Position numbers and translations under genes: made by a program. From a bacterium (GTDB taxonomy: Bacteria; Zhuqueibacterota; Zhuqueibacteria; Residuimicrobiales; Krinioviventaceae), in contig OY843751.1 of assembly GCA_963693055.1 (NCBI GenBank), positions 512,001 to 576,000 of the forward strand: DNA of 64,000 bases, in the 5' to 3' direction. The notes under the pieces are model-generated. The model saw nothing but the letters and a program-made list of their open reading frames with translations, was not told where the DNA came from and made no database searches. Of this stretch, positions 34,741 through 48,618 are shown one piece after another. How positions within the stretch are numbered: the first letter of the stretch is position 1; every line of letters starts with the position of its first letter.

Positions 34741-35154
34741 ATGGAAACCAAAAACAACCGTTCTCTTTATAGACAAAGTAAGCAGCGCGACAGGATTTTA
34801 GAATTATTACGTTCTACTAAAACACATCCTACAGCGGACTGGATTTATGAGAATCTGAAAAAGGAATTCCCTAATCTTAGCCTCGGAACCGTATATCGTA
34901 ACCTTTCTATTTTGGCTGAGCAGGGTTTTATTAAGAAAATTCAGTATGGCAGCACGTTTGATAGATTCGAGGCCAATATTGCACTGCATTACCATTTGAT
35001 TTGTGACAAATGCGGCAGTATTTCTGATTTTGAAATGCCGGTAGAACAGGGGTTGAATGAAAAAGCAAACCAGTTTACTGAATTTAAAGTAAAACGACAT
35101 AAATTGGAATTTTTCGGATTATGTAAATCTTGCGGTGATCTTGAGATAGACTGA
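34741..35154 (+). CDS. Fur family regulator, PerR-like
   Basis: HPTADWIY; SLGTVYRNL; HYHLICDKCG; GLCKSC. Confidence 0.93.
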   Translation: METKNNRSLYRQSKQRDRILELLRSTKTHPTADWIYENLKKEFPNLSLGTVYRNLSILAEQGFIKKIQYGSTFDRFEANIALHYHLICDKCGSISDFEMPVEQGLNEKANQFTEFKVKRHKLEFFGLCKSCGDLEID

Positions 35155-35313
35155 GTGAGAGGCAACCCGGGGCCAGATAGACAATTATTAATGCTTTGAT
35201 ATAATAATTTCTTTTTTGTACCTTATAATGTGCATAATATTTTTATGCGCCCTGTTTTTTATTCTCTCAAATTATTACATAAATCATCACTGAAATTCTT
35301 GGAGGAATTTGTA

Positions 35314-35808
35314 ATGCATGAAAAAAGTATAGAGCTGTTAAATAAAGCTGTTGCGGATGAAATGACTGCTGTTCATCAATATATGTATTTTCATTTTCAT
35401 TGTGACGATCAAGGCTTTGATTTGCTGGCAAACCTGTTTAAACGTACCGCTATTAGTGAAATGATGCATGTAGAACAATTGGCAGAACGTATTTTGTTTT
35501 TAAAAGGTGAAGTTGAATTACATGCTGCCAAAGATGTTGTAAAAATTCATGATGTTAAAGAAATGTTGAAAACCGCATGTGGTATGGAAGAAGCATCTGT
35601 TAAAGATTATAACATGTGGGCGAATGAATGTGCGCAAAATGCAGATTCTGTATCTAAAAAACTTTTTGAAGCACTTGTAGCAGATGAAGAAGGCCATTTT
35701 GATCAGTTTGATACCGAGCTGGAAAATATTGAAAAATTTGGCGTTCAATACCTGGCTCTGCAATCCATTGAGAGAAGTAAAGCAATGGGCGCCGGCGGCG
35801 AAGCTTAA
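35314..35808 (+). CDS. bfr: Bacterioferritin
   Basis: DEMTAVHQY; EMMH (heme Met and ferroxidase ligands); ERILFL; DEEGH; SD GGAGG before ATG 35314. Confidence 0.9.
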   Translation: MHEKSIELLNKAVADEMTAVHQYMYFHFHCDDQGFDLLANLFKRTAISEMMHVEQLAERILFLKGEVELHAAKDVVKIHDVKEMLKTACGMEEASVKDYNMWANECAQNADSVSKKLFEALVADEEGHFDQFDTELENIEKFGVQYLALQSIERSKAMGAGGEA

Positions 35809-35844
35809 AAAATAATTTTTTTCTTGAATATTTTTGATTAAATT

Positions 35845-35872
35845 AAGGTCTGTTTTATAACAGACCTTTTTT
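35845..35872 (+). terminator. Intrinsic terminator
   Basis: AAGGTCTGTT-TTAT-AACAGACCTT plus T-tract. Confidence 0.8.
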
Positions 35873-35996
35873 ATTGGCCGTAATTAGGGGCTATATCGGC
35901 TCGTTAGTTAACAACCCCATCCAAGTTTATTCTTCTTAAAATATTATCACAGATTTTTGTGGTACTGCAGAGGTGTATTTCTAGAAAGACATAGAT

Positions 35997-37721
35997 ATGG
36001 TTCAGGAACGATTTGAACCCAAATTGATAACCGTTATCAAAGAGGGTTATTCCAGTTCGCAGTTTTTGAGTGATCTGGTTGCAGGAATTATTGTAGGTAT
36101 TGTTGCGTTGCCGTTGGCCCTGGCGTTTGCAATTGCATCAGGTGTCAAGCCAGAACAGGGGCTTTATACGGCAATTATTGCAGGATTTTTAATTTCTTTT
36201 TTTAGTGGAAGCCGGGTGCAAATTGGCGGCCCTACCGGTGCTTTTATTGTTATTGTTTACAATATTGTTCAGAATTATGGCTATAGTGGTTTGGCTACCG
36301 CTACGGTTATAGCTGGGGTGTTGCTCGTTATTATGGGTTTTTTACGCCTTGGTACAATCATAAAATATATCCCTTATCCTGTAACGGTTGGTTTTACTTT
36401 TGGTATCGCCATTATTATCTTTGCGGGGCAAATGCGTGACCTGCTAGGATTAGATATGGAAACTGTTCCTGCTGAATTTGTTGAAAAGTGGGTTGCTTAT
36501 GCAGACCATTTTCATTCCTTTAATTTTTATGCCTTTGGAATTGGACTTTTATCCGTTTTGATTGTTATCTTTTGGCCCAGGGTAACCCATCGGGTACCCG
36601 GTTCGTTGATTGCTATTCTATTGACTACTGCAATTGTACAGATTTTTGATGTGCCTGTTGAAACAATACAAAGCCGTTTTGGAAGTGTTTCCGGTCATTT
36701 TGGTGCAATACAAATTCCAAAATTGGATTTACAACATGTCAGGAATTTGTTCTCTCCGGCGGTATCTATTGCTTTGCTGGCTGGTATAGAGTCGTTATTG
36801 TCTGCTGTCGTTGCGGATGGCATGACAGGTCGTAAGCATAGATCGAATATGGAACTTGTTGCGCAGGGGATAGCGAATATTTTTTCTCCATTATTCGGCG
36901 GCATTCCGGCAACGGGTGCAATTGCCCGAACAGCTACCAATATTAAAAATGGGGGTAAAACCCCAATAGCAGGAATTGTGCACGCTGTTGTTTTGCTGTT
37001 AATTATGCTGTTTCTGGGCAAATGGGCAGCTTTAATACCTATGGCAACCCTGGCTGGCATTTTAATTATTGTTGCATACAATATGAGCGAGTGGCATTTG
37101 TTTATTAAATTGTTCAAAAGCCCCAAAAGTGATGTACTAGTATTGTTGATTACTTTTTTTCTTACCGTTTTTGTTGATTTGATTGTTGCTATCCAGGCTG
37201 GTGTTGTGCTGGCGGCTTTATTGTTTATGCGAAGAATGACCATGGTGACACAGGCGGGTTATATTAATGGTATTGTTCAGGATGAAGAAGAACAGGACGA
37301 CCTGAACAGCCTTTCGAGAAGAATAATACCGGATAATGTTGAAGTGTTTGAGGTGAATGGACCATTCTTTTTTGGTGCGGCAGACAAGTTCAAGAGCGCG
37401 CTGTACCAGGTACAGAAAAAACCGGATGTTTTGATCTTGAGAATGCGCAAGGTGCTATCCGTTGATGCTACAGGTTTGCGTGCATTGGAGGAAGTGGTTA
37501 ATAAAACGCGTCAGGAAGGGACGGTGCTTATTTTGTCAGGTGTGCATGCGCAACCGTTGGTTGCAATGGAACGTTCGGGACTGTTGGAAAAGATAGGTAG
37601 TGATAATTTGTTTGGAAATATTGATGACGCATTAAACAGGGCCAGAGATTTGATGGGCCTTCCTGTTGTGGAACCACCGCAACCCTTTATTCCGGTTGTA
37701 AAACGGGAAATGGATAAATAA
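35997..37721 (+). CDS. SulP family anion permease with STAS domain
   Basis: DLVAGIIVGIVALPLALAFAIASG; GGPTGAF; ESLLSAVVADG; C-terminal STAS. Confidence 0.95.
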   Translation: MVQERFEPKLITVIKEGYSSSQFLSDLVAGIIVGIVALPLALAFAIASGVKPEQGLYTAIIAGFLISFFSGSRVQIGGPTGAFIVIVYNIVQNYGYSGLATATVIAGVLLVIMGFLRLGTIIKYIPYPVTVGFTFGIAIIIFAGQMRDLLGLDMETVPAEFVEKWVAYADHFHSFNFYAFGIGLLSVLIVIFWPRVTHRVPGSLIAILLTTAIVQIFDVPVETIQSRFGSVSGHFGAIQIPKLDLQHVRNLFSPAVSIALLAGIESLLSAVVADGMTGRKHRSNMELVAQGIANIFSPLFGGIPATGAIARTATNIKNGGKTPIAGIVHAVVLLLIMLFLGKWAALIPMATLAGILIIVAYNMSEWHLFIKLFKSPKSDVLVLLITFFLTVFVDLIVAIQAGVVLAALLFMRRMTMVTQAGYINGIVQDEEEQDDLNSLSRRIIPDNVEVFEVNGPFFFGAADKFKSALYQVQKKPDVLILRMRKVLSVDATGLRALEEVVNKTRQEGTVLILSGVHAQPLVAMERSGLLEKIGSDNLFGNIDDALNRARDLMGLPVVEPPQPFIPVVKREMDK

Positions 37722-37770: not shown

Positions 37771-40092
37771 CTAATGACCCAGTGTAAAACCTATTAATAA
37801 TCTTCTTGGGACTGATGGTCCATAAACATACCCTGCATCTCGGGCAATGCCTTTGTCAAAGTCTTTCTGAAAAGAGTCTGTAATATTGTACATACCGATT
37901 GAGAATGTACCATATGAATGCCCCATTACAGGCAGTTTGTAAGAAGCAACAAGATCAAAAGTTACAAAGCTTTTTGTATGTTCAAGACGATCTTGCACAA
38001 TGTATCCGGCATAGTGTGGAGCATACATGGGACCGGTATATTTTGAAATTCCAAGTAAATTGATTTTATTCGAAAGATCATATGAAAGCCGTACACTGCC
38101 ATATAAATCAGGGGTGCGGAAAATGTGTGTAGAATTGAAATCGGGTTCCGGGGAATCCAACTCGCTGTTTTGCAGGGTAAATCCGGTTGTGATTTCTGCT
38201 TTGCGTGTTCGAAAACCAACTTCAAACTCTACTCCTTTGACGACTGATCCATCGCCATTGGCACGATAAAATTCGAACTCATCGGTATTGGGATCATCTC
38301 TTTCATCCAGAATAAATGTTTTGGTAAGATCAGTATAAAATCCATTTAGACTGAACCGCAATCCATTTGTGCCCAGTATTTCTGTCCATTCTGCACCACC
38401 ATAAAAGGTTGTTGCCCGCTCTTCTTCCAAATCATCGCTATTGCGAATGATTTGACCTTCACCACCTACTTGAGTAATATGTAAATCTTCATCAAAGATT
38501 TGGGGAGGTTTAAAGCCAGTAGAAATACCACCACGTATGGTAAGAGGATTGGTGATATGCCAGCGCATAACAGCCCTGGGACTGAAAATAGCATTGTTTA
38601 TTTCAGAGTGTTTATCGATTCGGCTTCCATAAACCAGTTCAATCTGATCATTTTTATCCATTTTCCACATGTCTTGAAGGATTAATCCCAAATTGGTATA
38701 TGTTTCATCAATTATTCGATTGTAAGAAACGGCTATGTCTTTGAGTTTTTCTTGTTTGTATTGTACGCCTGCGGTTAGGAGGTGATTACTCAACAGGTAA
38801 TTTGCCTGGGCACCTGTTACCACTAGCGGATTTTCACTTTCTCCATAAGCATTAGGATCTTGCTCGGCACCATAATATGTATCACGGTTTGTTAGTGCCA
38901 GAGATGTGAAGACTTTATAATCAAGTAAGGCGCTGGGATTATGGGTCCACTTTAGTGAACCACCATATCGTTCTGTTTCGCTTGCTTCGGCAATGTCTGC
39001 TTTATGTGGAGCAAGATCAAATTTATTGCCACCCCGACGATCTTCGTGAATGAAGTGGGTTTGCAATGCCAGCTCGCCATTGATTACTGGTTTATAATAC
39101 CAGTTTAAACCAACTGCCTGATTTTCAAGTTTTCCGATTTCACTAAAACCATCGCTATTGGCATCCCAGGGATCACGATTCCTCATTGTTGCGAACAGAT
39201 ATCCACTCGAATTTCCTTTGCTATTTACTCGTGCAAGGGTAACTCCAAGCTTTTGGTCCAGATCACCATTGATGGAGCCGTTACGATAATCCAAAGCAAT
39301 GTCATTGTGAGTAGGTCGCCGGGTGATCAGGTTCACAACACCCGCAACAGCAGTGCCACCATATAAGGCTGAACCACCACCTTTAACAATTTCTACTTTT
39401 TCAATCATTTCATCAGGGAACTGTTCAAGTCCATAGACATTGGCAAGGCTGCTAATAACGGGGTCACTGTCAATAAGTACCTGGGTGTGGTGGCCTTCCA
39501 TGCCCAGCAGGCGTACCTGGGTAAAATTACAATTCTGGCAGTTTTGTTCAACTCTTACACCTGTTTGAAAGTCCAATACTTCTGCCAGGTTGTTTGCTTT
39601 TTGGGCCTGTATCAATTTTCGGGATACAACAGATGTTTTAACCGGTGCGTCTTTATAAAATTGAGGAACTCCGGTTGCTGTAACAACAACTTCTTCAGCT
39701 TTGATCACTGAGGGATTGAGTTCGAATTCAATGCTGGTTGTTTTGTTGAGGGATATTTTTACTTCTTTTTCAATAGACTCAAAACCCATCATTGATACTT
39801 TGAGTCTATACATACCTGGTTGAAGATTTGATATTTTAAATGTACCATCATGGTTGGTAGCAGCACCAAGATAAGTGCCTGTAATTAATACATTGGCACC
39901 AGGAAGCGGTTCATGACTTTCAGTGTCTAATATAACTCCAGCTAAGGTACCGTTTTGATTATTGTGATGATGACCTTTGCGGTGTTGATGTCTGTTGGTT
40001 TCCTGTGCGTATGAAATATGAATATTCAGGGATTGAAATATATATAAAACAGCGATGAACACTGCCAATTTGATAGAATAATTCCTTGACAT
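37771..40092 (-). CDS. TonB-dependent receptor with His-rich N-terminus and CQNC plug motif (probable metal uptake)
   Basis: HQHRKGHHH after the signal peptide; GVRVEQNCQNCNFTQVR; VKGGGSALYG; RDAGYVYGP. Confidence 0.92.
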   Translation of the reverse strand: MSRNYSIKLAVFIAVLYIFQSLNIHISYAQETNRHQHRKGHHHNNQNGTLAGVILDTESHEPLPGANVLITGTYLGAATNHDGTFKISNLQPGMYRLKVSMMGFESIEKEVKISLNKTTSIEFELNPSVIKAEEVVVTATGVPQFYKDAPVKTSVVSRKLIQAQKANNLAEVLDFQTGVRVEQNCQNCNFTQVRLLGMEGHHTQVLIDSDPVISSLANVYGLEQFPDEMIEKVEIVKGGGSALYGGTAVAGVVNLITRRPTHNDIALDYRNGSINGDLDQKLGVTLARVNSKGNSSGYLFATMRNRDPWDANSDGFSEIGKLENQAVGLNWYYKPVINGELALQTHFIHEDRRGGNKFDLAPHKADIAEASETERYGGSLKWTHNPSALLDYKVFTSLALTNRDTYYGAEQDPNAYGESENPLVVTGAQANYLLSNHLLTAGVQYKQEKLKDIAVSYNRIIDETYTNLGLILQDMWKMDKNDQIELVYGSRIDKHSEINNAIFSPRAVMRWHITNPLTIRGGISTGFKPPQIFDEDLHITQVGGEGQIIRNSDDLEEERATTFYGGAEWTEILGTNGLRFSLNGFYTDLTKTFILDERDDPNTDEFEFYRANGDGSVVKGVEFEVGFRTRKAEITTGFTLQNSELDSPEPDFNSTHIFRTPDLYGSVRLSYDLSNKINLLGISKYTGPMYAPHYAGYIVQDRLEHTKSFVTFDLVASYKLPVMGHSYGTFSIGMYNITDSFQKDFDKGIARDAGYVYGPSVPRRLLIGFTLGH

Positions 40093-40225
40093 TTTCTACT
40101 CCAAGTCAGATGAAAATATTTATATATATCCTGTATTATTGGACGGAATAGGATAGAGTCCAACAATTACCCATCGCAATAAACAGGTTGAAAAATGAAT
40201 GTGTTATAATGTGAAAACAGTTGTA

Positions 40226-40603
40226 TTAGATAGAAACAGGAGGTGCTCTAAGAATAATGAAAAATGTGAGAAATAGAGACTGTAAAATGTGCGTTCGCCC
40301 AATTTTTAGCTGTTGCGCGAATTTTTGGTCAATGAGAGAGTGTATGAAAAGTATAACAAGAAAAGCCAACAGTGTAAATAGCGTGTGGCAAAGAAGAAAT
40401 CCGCTTTCAGTGTGAGAATGGCTTTGATTGGGGCTGCCAGTTTTGTTGAATGGAATTGCATGGCTGTGAACTACAATTTTACCATCAGGCAGAACGTGAA
40501 TATGGGTAAATAGCATTGTAGCTATTAAAAGCATAGACAATGCTGCAATCATGAAAATTGATATTATAGAACAAAAAAGATTTTTTCTGTTATGACAGAT
40601 CAT
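40226..40603 (-). CDS. His-rich membrane leader protein ending in RAPP (DUF2946/CruR-like arrest-peptide candidate)
   Basis: 125 aa from ATG 40603, overlapping the mntR stop; TM-HIH-LPDG-HSH...HSH-TM...LRAPPVSI. Confidence 0.75.
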   Translation of the reverse strand: MICHNRKNLFCSIISIFMIAALSMLLIATMLFTHIHVLPDGKIVVHSHAIPFNKTGSPNQSHSHTESGFLLCHTLFTLLAFLVILFIHSLIDQKFAQQLKIGRTHILQSLFLTFFIILRAPPVSI

Positions 40604-41144
40604 TTTCCTGCCTAAAGTAATTTTCATCACCTGAGAAATAACATTCGATTTCGCAAACATCACATTGTTCATCTTGGTGGGTGCAATTGTAATTGTATTC
40701 TGAAAAGGCTTTGCGAAATGCAACAGCACGTGGATCATCTGAAAGGTAAAAGCCCATAAAAGATAGAATTTTGGCACTGGATTCTTTGGTAACCAGGTGC
40801 TCAATTTTGCAGGCATCTTCTTCTGCAACTGTGGGATTCACCAGCATAATCTCGGACAATAATCTTTCAAATAATCTTCTTTTCGACAATACCGCGTTTA
40901 CAAGTTGATTGCCAGTGTCAGATAGTTTAAAAAAACGGTTTTTATCTTCTAAAATATAGCCTTTTGCCACTAGTTTATTGACTGTTATGGAGACACTGCC
41001 ACGCGTTAATCCCAGGTAATTTGAAATATCTATGCTTCTTGCGTAACCCTGAGTTTTAACAAGTGTGTGTATTGCCATAAGATAATGCACTGAACTGTGG
41101 CTGAGTTCAATTTCGTCAAATTTTTTCCAAACATCTTGAATCAT
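40590..41144 (-). CDS. mntR: DtxR/MntR family metal-dependent repressor with Cys-rich tail
   Basis: HYLMAIH; ARSIDIS; AEEDACKIEH; tail CTHQDEQCDVCEIEC. Confidence 0.85.
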   Translation of the reverse strand: MIQDVWKKFDEIELSHSSVHYLMAIHTLVKTQGYARSIDISNYLGLTRGSVSITVNKLVAKGYILEDKNRFFKLSDTGNQLVNAVLSKRRLFERLLSEIMLVNPTVAEEDACKIEHLVTKESSAKILSFMGFYLSDDPRAVAFRKAFSEYNYNCTHQDEQCDVCEIECYFSGDENYFRQENDLS

Positions 41145-41156
41145 GATTGCTACTTT

Positions 41157-41207
41157 TGTTTTGCATGTCAAACATTGAAATATAATGTGATTATTATAAA
41201 TATACAA
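41157..41207 (-). promoter_or_regulatory. mntR promoter and palindromic operator
   Basis: TTGTAT-N17-TATATT (41207-41179); imperfect palindrome TGTTTTGCATGTCAAACA (41157-41174) at the expected start site. Confidence 0.6.
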
Positions 41208-45500: not shown

Positions 45501-46564
45501 GCCTACGAAATGGCTCAAGTGGTTAATGTAACCATACGCCGGATATTATAAACCCATGCTGCAATCACAAATTCGAAACGATTTCGGCCCATATCATAAT
45601 AACTGCACCGATCATAATCTAATACTTGCTTCATGAAGGCAAACGGTCTTTCAACTGCATTCCGAACTTTAGATAATTGCTTATTTCTTTTTACCTGCTT
45701 TGATGTCAAATTTCGGTTCCTATATCCTTTATCAAGAATACCGCAATAGACTCCTTTGCCTCGCAGGTTGCACTTGCGGGCTTTGTTCGTGTAACCTTTA
45801 TCTGCGAACACCGCATTTTCTTTTTCTGTTATCAGATCCGGAAATAGATTGGTGTCGTGAATACTTGCGCTGGTAAACTCTACTGAATGAATAATATCAC
45901 TGTCTAAATCTGTACCAATATGGCCCTTGTAGCCATAATGCGTTTTGCCACGTTTCTTTGTGAAATCTGCATCACGATCACGTTTGCTTCCTGGTTTCGC
46001 TTGTGCTTGCTTAATGGTTGCATCAACAAGGGTTCCTTTGCCAACGATTAGACCCATTTTTTCAAGCTGTTTGTTGAATTGCCGGAACAGTATTTTATCA
46101 AGACCAAGGCGAGAAAATTGTTCACGATAGCGACAGATAGTGGTCTCGTCAGGGATTGCATCAGCACTGGTCAGTTCCAGAAACAATTGAAAACTACGTC
46201 GATCCGCAATCTCTTCTTCCAGGCGAGGATCGGATAAACCATAGATACGTTGTAATAAAAAACAACGAACAATAACTAACAAATCAAATGACGGCTTGCC
46301 TGCATTTGATTTTCTGGTTTTTGATTGTTCAATACGTTCTTCAATGGGTTCAAGCAAATTTTGCCAATCAATTTTTTCTTTGATAATTTCCAGAGCTTGT
46401 TTGCTTTGGGTTTTTATATGCTTTTTGAAATTTTCATTTGCTGCTGTGGTAAACAAGTCTTCATTGTGTATTCTATTGCGGCCCATGTGAAGCTCCTATT
46501 TGTTTTTTCATACAGCAAATTAGTAAATTTTAACCTTTGATTCTAATAATATTTCAGAGGTTTC
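45501..46564 (-). mobile_element. IS5-family insertion sequence (ends tentative)
   Basis: Transposase flanked by imperfect IRs GCCTACGAAAT / ATTTCAGAGGTTTC, with ATAT on both outer sides. Confidence 0.7.
45515..46486 (-). CDS. IS5-family DDE transposase
   Basis: LQRIYGLSDPRLEE; PDETTICRYR; VDATI; YGYKGHI; ADKGY; RNAVERPF. Confidence 0.95.
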   Translation of the reverse strand: MGRNRIHNEDLFTTAANENFKKHIKTQSKQALEIIKEKIDWQNLLEPIEERIEQSKTRKSNAGKPSFDLLVIVRCFLLQRIYGLSDPRLEEEIADRRSFQLFLELTSADAIPDETTICRYREQFSRLGLDKILFRQFNKQLEKMGLIVGKGTLVDATIKQAQAKPGSKRDRDADFTKKRGKTHYGYKGHIGTDLDSDIIHSVEFTSASIHDTNLFPDLITEKENAVFADKGYTNKARKCNLRGKGVYCGILDKGYRNRNLTSKQVKRNKQLSKVRNAVERPFAFMKQVLDYDRCSYYDMGRNRFEFVIAAWVYNIRRMVTLTT

Positions 46565-47002: not shown

Positions 47003-47167
47003 AAATTAGACTGACAATTCAAGTTGTTCCAATTATTTAATTCTTGTATCCTGTAAAAGAATTAATTATACTCTGGTGTATACTGTTTGTATTTTTTTAA
47101 AATAGCTATTCTTTTTTATCCATCCTTTTTAAAAAGAGAACTGTCATTGAAAATACAGAGGAGCACT

Positions 47168-48618
47168 ATGAGAAACCTACCTCGTCGTCATTTTTTGCAA
47201 CTTGCAGGTTTAGCGGGGGCATCAATGTTAATCCCGGGTTGTGCAAAGAAAACAAAACCCAACATAGTATTGATTATGGCCGATGATATGGGCTATGGTG
47301 ATCCGGGTTGCTATAATCCGGAAAGTAAAGCACCAACTCCTAATATCGATCAGCTTGCGGCTGATGGAATGCGGTTTACCAATGCTCATTCAGCCGGGTC
47401 TTTGTGTATTCCCGCACGATATGGTTTGTTGACCGGCAGGTACCCCATGCGGGAAGATATGGACAAGCATCACTATACCAATCTGATTGAACCGGGACGC
47501 GAAACGCTAGCTACTATAGTCAAGAAAAGCGGATACCGGACTGCCATGGTAGGGAAATGGCACCTGGGTTTTGAACATATCGATGACCCTGATTTCAGTA
47601 AACCACTCAAAGGCGGTCCTGTTGATTGCGGTTTTGATTCCTTTTTCGGCATGCATGCATCGCTGGATATTCAACCCTATTATTATATCGAAAATGACCG
47701 TGCCGTATCTCCACCCACAGAGACGATAGAGGCCCACAACAGTCCCGATGTTACTCCTGTTCAGGGTGCATTCTGGCGGAAAGGTAAAATAGCGCCGGGA
47801 TTCAAACATGATGAGGTTTTACCCAAATTTGCGGAAAAGTCCATTACATTTTTAAAACAGCAGGATAAAAACAATCCGTTTTTTTTCTATCTGGCGCTTG
47901 CAGCGCCGCATACTCCCTGGCTGCCCCAGGGTAAATTCCGTGGGATGAGTAAAGCTGGGGATTATGGAGATTTTGTATCGCAGGTTGATGATGTGGTTGG
48001 CCGTGTCTTGAAAACGCTTCAGGACAAAGGTCTTGCTGAGAATACTCTGGTCATATTTACCAGTGATAACGGACCTGTCTGGTTCAAACAAGATGTGGAA
48101 CGTTATGATCATCGTTCTGTTTCTTTTTTACGGGGAATGAAAGCTGATGCCTACGAGGCGGGCACCGGATGCCCTTTATTGCACGCTGGCCCGGAAAGGT
48201 ACAGCCCGGCAGTGTAAACGATCATGTTATTAGTTTTGTAGATATTTTGGCAACACTTGCCGAGGTAGCCGGTCAGCCGTTAACCCAATATGCTGAAGAC
48301 AGCTATAGTATTGTTCCGATTCTGATGGACAAGGATTACCCAAAACCTTTACGGGAAGCTACTGTAATAGACAGTAACACGCTTATACAATGGCCCTGGA
48401 AACTGATTGTGGGATCAGGATTGGGTGGAATACATGCGCGTTATAATCCTGAATTGCAGGATGATCGACATAAAGGAACGCATTTTAACGAACTTTATAA
48501 TTTAGAAAAAGACCCATCTGAAACTCAAAATCTTGCAGAGCAGCACCCTGAAATTGTAGAGCGTTTAAAGAAATTGCTAAATACATATAAAGAACAGGGA
48601 TTCAGTGTAAAACGTTAA
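47168..48618 (+). pseudogene. Tat-exported S1 (Cys-type) sulfatase with a single -1 frameshift at ~48157 (possibly a sequencing error)
   Basis: PRRHFL; PNIVLIMADD; CIPAR; GKWHLG; expected YEGGHRMP is split across ORFs 47087-48217 and 48169-48618. Confidence 0.85.

Follow-up and report, generated by a model that had tools for sequence, protein, structure and literature searches.

A histidine-rich leader peptide ending in RAPP as a candidate metal-responsive arrest peptide ahead of a TonB-dependent receptor gene

Between a DtxR-family repressor gene and a TonB-dependent receptor gene, the bacterial window analysed here (the whole stretch of 64,000 nucleotides) encodes a small protein that carries six histidines and ends close to a RAPP motif. 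Judging from its sequence and that of its relatives, the protein is probably a leader that stalls its own ribosome at RAPP and keeps the receptor on until a divalent metal, bound by the six histidines, releases the chain. Taken separately, arrest at RAPP is very likely, tuning of that arrest through a metal at the histidine site is likely, and the proposed direction, with metal turning the receptor off, is probable. The principle of metal-sensing arrest is already known from CruR and CutF, and members of the present family were catalogued in bulk in 2025 (PMC12992588, a source that, like PMC9426467, PMC7886326, 10.1101/2021.02.06.430026 and 10.1101/2025.02.05.636593, is cited throughout for its accessible part). 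What appears to be new is a conserved, His-only leader family that resembles CruR and CutF yet is not DUF2946. Both characterised metal-sensing arrest peptides, CruR and CutF, use cysteine and copper. If the proposal is right, a His-only family of more than a thousand clusters would extend nascent-chain sensing to other metals, and the leader would be a regulatory handle on a common receptor family. Since BT_RS02460 and BT_RS02470/BT0503 are found in the genetically tractable B. thetaiotaomicron, the question is directly testable.

Table 1. Features of the leader locus (positions are those of the window)
Feature	Positions	Strand	Remarks
Putative sigma-70-type promoter of three-gene operon, TTGTAT-17 nt-TATATT	41179..41207	-	TTG..A and TATA(T/A)T align in 5/7 upstream regions
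Palindromic putative operator, TGTTT-N8-(A/T)AACA	41155..41176	.	in 7/7 regions before the DtxR-like gene
DtxR-family metal-dependent repressor, 184 aa	40590..41144	-	PF01325 28.3 vs 26 bits; PF02742 43.8 vs 27 bits
His6-RAPP leader ORF, 125 aa	40226..40603	-	ATG to TAA
First hydrophobic helix, residues 9-32	40508..40579	-	Kyte-Doolittle 2.67; basic N-terminus before; signal anchor or signal peptide
His beta-hairpin, H34-x-H36 ... H46-x-H48	40460..40504	-	four His in 144/144 aligned; strands predicted
Third His pair, H62-x-H64 (HSH)	40412..40420	-	H64 invariant; H62 in at least 90%
Second hydrophobic helix, best window residues 69-87 (stretch 66-91)	40343..40399	-	Kyte-Doolittle 2.67
RAPP motif, R119-A-P-P122, codons AGA GCA CCT CCT	40238..40249	-	three residues before stop; ends LRAPPVSI
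133-nt spacer with receptor GGAG RBS (40102-40099)	40093..40225	-	first part C-rich, G-poor
TonB-dependent receptor, 773 aa, CxxC (CQNC) in plug, His-rich N-terminus	37771..40092	-	Pfam plug and barrel

The plus-strand frame across 40226-40603 is full of stops and the ORF reads on the minus strand, a detail that can be added to the first-pass annotation, whose 125-residue ORF with two hydrophobic helices, His clusters and a LRAPPVSI end agrees with the translation. The leader ATG at 40603 lies 14 nt inside the 3' end of the DtxR-like gene (stop at 40590), with AGGCAGGA standing just ahead of it, and the distance of 133 nt given earlier between the leader stop and the receptor start (ATG at 40092) is borne out by the coordinates. 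As had also been pointed out, the leader is hidden within a 200-residue call that overlaps the upstream gene, listed as 40226-40828. This longer reading from a TTG is rejected: the extension is not conserved, and the same-genus copy has only 133 open codons. Residues 34-48 read HIHVLPDGKIVVHSH. Two AlphaFold2 runs on the leader (pLDDT 77 and 83) gave a helix at residues 5-32, strands at 33-37 and 43-47 and a long helix from residue 66.

Endings of this kind are rare in the genome. Among 28,997 six-frame stop-to-stop segments of at least 60 amino acids, only 16 have R[AG](PP/GP) within 15 residues of the stop, and five of the 16 are hydrophobic, His-bearing small genes that head transport operons. 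It is hardly credible that the leader is a chance frame or a vestige without a regulatory role in this genome, even with no RNA-structure signal in this copy and a paralog that has no ATG, given that the same-genus copy is 85% identical with its motifs intact, that the overlap with the repressor stop is conserved in five genomes and that the family comprises over a thousand clusters.

That family is large and has no Pfam or NCBIfam name (21 members and this ORF were scanned against Pfam). Counted as representatives at 50% identity, 1,154 match the profile at E<=1e-10 and at least 2,500 at E<=0.001. The protein is found in 17 of 41 relatives and, by profile, in 41 of 145 genomes of the phylum. 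It precedes receptors and ZnuA/ABC-3 operons in KSB1, Calditrichota, Ignavibacteria, Marinimicrobia and Bacteroidota, and a cluster look-up returned a taxon name, Bacteroidales, for one of ten clusters. Profiles are needed to recover these relatives, as a single-sequence protein search with the leader returned only one; Foldseek with the leader against the PDB gave no match at E<=0.001. Across 144 aligned members the mean column identity is 23%, with H34, H36, H46, H48, H64, R119, P121 and P122 invariant, and between the third His pair and RAPP only length and hydrophobicity are conserved. The top 150 representatives end in RAPP (89), RGPP (59) or neither (2), and CxxC is absent from this leader as well as from 147 of the 150. 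After the motif a tail of three residues follows here and mostly of 2-8 in the family.

Several variations on the theme were seen along the way. Two His-RAPP leaders stand in tandem before one receptor at six loci (L051, L054, L061, L062, L084, L093), a possible form of two-input control, and at L129 the second leader, after a His leader, is of CxxC type and carries RGPP. This genome holds three other small genes ending in RAPP, all on the plus strand (G000:C1:2105205-2105516, 4987367-4987663 and 2397380-2397757). They are of FHNH...HHxDCP and HFH...HH types without a Pfam match; two head lipoprotein and receptor operons and one a TolC/RND-type efflux operon.

The 55 copies collected from related genomes, among them one weak match of CxxC type (L081), comprise 33 with RAPP, 21 with RGPP and one frameshifted copy, whose RAPP lies in a different frame and which no receptor follows. 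Downstream of the 55 lie a CxxC-plug receptor in 36 cases and a porin-like gene with ZnuA and two ABC-3 permeases in 14, the remainder being three contig edges and two other contexts; these classes were sorted by motif, and the ZnuA/ABC-3 type was checked with Pfam on one operon. Because the leader profile itself contains RAPP, the link between leader, motif and receptor was tested twice more without RAPP in the query. A profile of the N-terminal 70 residues alone, run over 121 genomes, returned 45 strong matches, namely the same loci and three new ones that all end in RAPP; five weak matches were left uncounted. The second test used the receptor as anchor, since the leader alignment offers no conserved stretch of 7-10 columns for contig scanning. 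From the best 80 of 554 receptor relatives, 73 with at least 900 nt upstream were evaluated: 49 are preceded by a His leader, 8 by a CxxC-type R[AS]PP leader and 16 by neither, and a same-sized background window 2.5-3.3 kb upstream yielded none in 52. Twenty-six of the His leaders lie outside the training set of the N-terminal profile, and these carry RAPP or RGPP (22), RSPP (1), KSPP (2) or NAPP (1). The check proposed at first pass, that HxH clusters be conserved together with a terminal RAPP/RGPP and a receptor behind them, is thus supported. At L142, L152 and L162 the motif now reads KSPP or NAPP with all histidines kept, and these copies are natural controls for an arrest assay.

The persistence of the histidines where RAPP has decayed (4 of the 26 new copies) fits another reading: the gene would act through its completed product, a small metal chaperone with two membrane helices that serves the receptor or the ABC system, and RAPP would be of secondary importance. 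Its two good hydrophobic helices, its confident fold (pLDDT 83) and the tandem copies at six loci fit as well. A chaperone is nonetheless improbable, because the region from the third His pair to RAPP conserves only length and hydrophobicity, RAPP and RGPP are avoided in proteomes unless used (PMC12992588), and the motif codons are biased towards hiding the next start, as described below.

The receptor itself falls below every named NCBIfam cut-off, and no full-length solved relative of it was found; its plug cysteines C185 and C188 are invariant in 12/12. Leaders of CxxC type with RAPP or RSPP stand before the same receptor family at L131, L179, L181, L183, L184, L185, L187 and L188, and at L121:6391-6735. 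Those tested miss the DUF2946 model and form an unnamed CruR-like group, and a profile comparison of the His leader with a CxxC-type leader gave a probability of 5% with an alignment limited to the RAPP end. At L168 and L170, loci without a leader, the receptor follows FeoB-like genes (GTPase motif, by eye). In the window, a Fur/PerR-family regulator, a ferritin-like protein and a SulP transporter (34741-37721, plus strand) converge on the receptor gene and add iron context. Farther off are a transposase-like ORF (45515-46486, minus strand, by eye) and a sulfatase-like gene split into two overlapping frames (47087-48618, plus strand, by eye).

With this anatomy, a course of events can be proposed. 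The first helix would direct the growing chain to Sec, leaving the His loop outside, and the ribosome would halt with Pro121 in the P site. Metal binding would then fold the hairpin together with the third His pair, adding force and freeing the stall. Until that point, receptor expression would continue because the stalled ribosome opens the receptor's start region, covers a C-rich Rho site, or does both. The first helix reaches a Kyte-Doolittle value of at least 1.6 in 146 of 151 members, the second in 143 of 151, and the N-terminus is net positive in 148 of 151. Since both hydrophobic segments and the basic N-terminus are general in the family, an N-in topology with the His loop outside is suggested; hydropathy and charge thus agree with the earlier proposal that the His clusters are exported. 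As for the stall, RAPP and RGPP arrest in several contexts, RAPP alone is insufficient for arrest, and toeprinting of CruR placed the first Pro of its motif in the P site of the arrested ribosome (PMC12992588).

In the register of CruR, the last hairpin His lies a median of 73 residues from the inferred P site (range 68-77, SD 2, n=149), the third His pair lies about 56 residues away, and the second helix starts about 52 away. Work in E. coli puts the pull of a periplasmic domain at the point where ~70 residues separate its end from the centre (10.1101/2021.02.06.430026), and that of a helix between the point where its start is ~45-50 residues away and the point where its end is ~45 away (PMC7886326). 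Hairpin folding and insertion of the second helix would both coincide with the stall. The match between leader spacing and known force distances, which come from E. coli and SecM, is suggestive.

The placement of the second helix at a known insertion distance could also serve an arrest peptide that reads a cue other than free metal, be it Sec/YidC insertion, a metal chelate or heme, or periplasmic pH, or a constitutive stall that couples receptor synthesis to the membrane. The motif is also that of Sec/YidC monitors (PMC12992588), and one paralog heads a HmuY-like operon. Five invariant histidines arranged in HxH pairs, the interchange with CxxC-type leaders at the same position and neighbours of metal type rather than sec genes make such a cue unlikely.

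How a stalled ribosome would reach the next gene is addressed by the spacer. Family spacers span about 35 to 780 nt and are therefore too long for simple coupling. The spacer here has no unusual fold (z -0.09 and -0.63), and a search for conserved RNA structure in the spacer found none. With a 30-nt ribosome footprint placed at RAPP, the next start is predicted to open at a cost that is on average 1.6 kcal/mol lower; the average covers 58 of 84 loci, those with a recognisable SD and a spacer of at most 330 nt. By locus the gain exceeds 1 in 26/58 and lies under -1 in 1/58, and 32/58 are without a gain above 1. Control footprints 45-105 nt upstream give 0.1-0.2 kcal/mol, and ordinary gene pairs (70 of 478 pairs) give 0.07 kcal/mol, with 9/70 against 26/58 at the leaders. 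At 41 of 58 loci, synonymous recoding leaves the start less hidden than it is with the native codons. For the first motif Pro, 35 of 81 leaders use CCT, and so contain CCTCC, against 16.7 expected; CCT usage is closer to even at the second motif Pro (25/81) and at other leader prolines (83/291). The p-values of these codon and folding signals are overstated because kin are not independent. The present copy shows next to no opening of the start (8.01 to 7.86 kcal/mol), and its same-genus counterpart shows the opposite effect (8.60 to 9.60 kcal/mol). Turning to Rho, which is encoded in this genome, C exceeds G before RAPP in 73 of 83 cases. With no enrichment of C at synonymous sites (0.56 vs 0.56), the skew may only reflect the protein, and selection for a Rho site at synonymous positions is unsupported.

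The gene upstream of the leader had been called MntR. It falls far under the cut-offs of the NCBIfam equivalogs (57.8 vs 138 and 54.8 vs 153 bits), so that identity is rejected in favour of the DtxR family. Its C112, E115 and H116 align opposite C102, E105 and H106 of DtxR, and H79 and H98 of DtxR are not kept; all of these DtxR residues are presumably metal ligands. The C-terminal cysteines C154, C161, C164 and C168 are invariant in 5/5. A His replaces Met10 of DtxR, an invariant HSS-H stretch is present, and a C-x6-C-x2-C-x3-C tail, possibly a second metal or Fe-S site, takes the place of the FeoA domain. Repressor and leader occur together at seven loci among 84 distinct leader copies, so the pairing that the first-pass annotation drew on is rare in the family; at three loci the repressor directly precedes the receptor without a leader. 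The promoter in Table 1 was found by reading and is absent from the consensus-scan list. A promoter-like match at 41171-41143 was discarded, since the conserved start codon and its -10 overlap.

The palindrome is likely bound by the DtxR-like repressor, and the repressor likely controls transcription of the whole operon. A matrix built from the seven sites also picks out three beyond its training set: one ahead of the DtxR-like gene at L154 (score 25.3), one at G000:C1:1592068 (29.5) and one at 1483192 (29.1). The latter two, both new places, rank first in this genome, above every score from the shuffled genome (best 21.5). One lies 78 nt before a flavodoxin gene followed by DUF2023, and the other lies before a paralogous His-RAPP leader heading PepSY-TM, HmuY-like and receptor genes. 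This paralog (L099, G000:C1:1482741-1483151, minus strand), whose operator is about 40 nt upstream of the open frame, is followed by a 185-aa exported protein, PepSY-TM, a HmuY-like lipoprotein and the receptor. It has no in-frame ATG and its first TTG cuts into the first helix, so either a rare start is used or the gene has decayed. Immediately upstream stands an integrase-like gene (by eye). Two further sites were not counted: C1:2115692 before a second CxxC receptor, whose score of 18.5 is within the shuffled range, and C1:6514320 (22.2), which has no evident target. A loose version of the palindrome shows no excess over control. In five other genomes, where flavodoxin was not found, the strict palindrome marks only its own site in three, one extra site in one and nothing in one.

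Iron removal raises fldA-DUF2023 48- to 598-fold in three Bacteroidetes, and few Bacteroidetes genes are more iron-induced than fldA-DUF2023 and hmu (PMC10434189). The sites at the flavodoxin-DUF2023 genes and the HmuY-like operon therefore point to iron as the most likely metal of the transcriptional layer, on the evidence of one genome, and iron is accordingly rated a reasonably probable effector of the repressor. Iron, which the sole regulon evidence from this genome favours, was missing from the metals first suggested (Ni, Co, Zn and Mn). The idea of a transcriptional layer on top of the leader stands as far as the palindrome before the DtxR-like gene is conserved; the attribution to MntR does not. 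A hemerythrin gene, a LuxR-type regulator and a second CxxC-plug receptor also lie together in this genome (G000:C1:2114291-2118184, plus strand, L194), and the hemerythrin-regulator pair is iron-induced in Bacteroidetes (PMC10434189).

The leader may read another metal than the repressor layer does. By judgement, iron or manganese is a tentative first choice, zinc on the one hand and nickel or cobalt on the other are each unlikely, and copper is very unlikely; the ZnuA/ABC-3 operons suggest zinc or manganese. In B. thetaiotaomicron under iron depletion, leader BT0503 and receptor BT0504 rise equally and only 2.4-fold, so iron causes no visible uncoupling of their mRNAs there. It is doubtful, on present sequences, whether the whole family is a periplasmic His6 nascent-chain sensor of Fe(II) (or Mn(II)) in which hairpin folding and helix insertion jointly pull the ribosome off RAPP. 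Were it so, arrest peptides would include a sensor for a transition metal other than copper, with members ranging from KSB1 to the Bacteroides of the gut; one and the same receptor would be served by interchangeable sensor heads of His or Cys type, and leaders in tandem would form two-input gates.

The sign of the response could also be the opposite, with metal binding holding the stall and the downstream genes on when metal is present. CutF behaves in this manner, as Cu bound in the periplasm stalls it and the cutO start is thereby opened (10.1101/2025.02.05.636593), and family-like leaders before RND adaptor and TolC genes in the Fujiwara list (PMC12992588) would suit it. It is rather unlikely here, as 50 of the 55 copies head uptake-type operons and the operon carries a repressor-type operator that it shares with starvation genes.

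Among known systems, SecM, ApdA and ApdP share with the His leader a RAPP-type core, an N-terminal targeting helix and likely release by pulling, but they precede sec/yidC genes and have no conserved metal ligands (PMC12992588). DUF6769 (PF20558) denotes Bacteroidota His/Cys RAPP proteins before efflux genes. It is the nearest named Atlas cluster to the homolog P0014 (0.93, 107 shared features) and also ends in RAPP, but its His/Cys pattern is different, and PF20558 matches nothing in this genome or in any of the 21 members.

CruR of Bordetella pertussis (Bp2923, DUF2946, PF11162; PMC9426467) is likewise a small exported-type upstream ORF with a C-terminal RAPP, a fixed spacing from sensor to RAPP and a TonB-dependent receptor downstream. 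Its spacer is also long (162 nt against 133 here), and both have a stretch with C>G near the motif. In these respects the CruR-like logic proposed at first pass is upheld, with RAPP at a fixed sensor distance (68-77) and a receptor behind, yet outside DUF2946: PF11162 has no match in this ORF or the 21 members and none in the genome at E<=1, with a positive control. The sensor of CruR lies 45 residues before the R, against 53-85 in the His leader, which has no CxxC and instead six histidines in a predicted hairpin together with a second hydrophobic helix. CruR senses in the cytoplasm and its signal peptide is dispensable (PMC9426467), whereas the His leader is predicted to sense in the periplasm. 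A DtxR-like gene heads the operon here, with the leader second, and the metal is probably not copper; the neighbours are receptor or ZnuA/ABC-3 genes, with no copper genes seen among them. CutF of Rhodobacter capsulatus, also DUF2946, has a nascent chain that senses metal across the inner membrane and a stalled ribosome that opens the next start, as proposed here. It differs in its CxxxC, its EF-P-sensitive PPP motif, its stalling with Cu present and its control of a detoxifying oxidase (10.1101/2025.02.05.636593).

The closest precedent is the survey of Fujiwara 2025, which reports RAPP/RGPP ORFs before TonB receptors across Gram-negative bacteria in 5,450 cases and arrest for His/Cys-bearing Streptomyces leaders (PMC12992588). 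In the accessible part of its text the His-hairpin family is not singled out, no member is tested and no metal is named; nor did the other literature searched yield a description of the family, and the parts of the Fujiwara data not covered here could discuss it. The source data hold a sequence identical to P0154 (MBN2521813.1, by eye) as well as B. thetaiotaomicron BT_RS02460 and BT_RS02470 (BT0503) with the same His pattern by eye, and family members are listed there as hypothetical proteins before receptors, RND adaptors and TolC (PMC12992588). The His leader has the sequence features of that class: fewer than 300 amino acids (125), the motif near the C-terminus, a hydrophobic N-terminal helix and a TonB receptor downstream.
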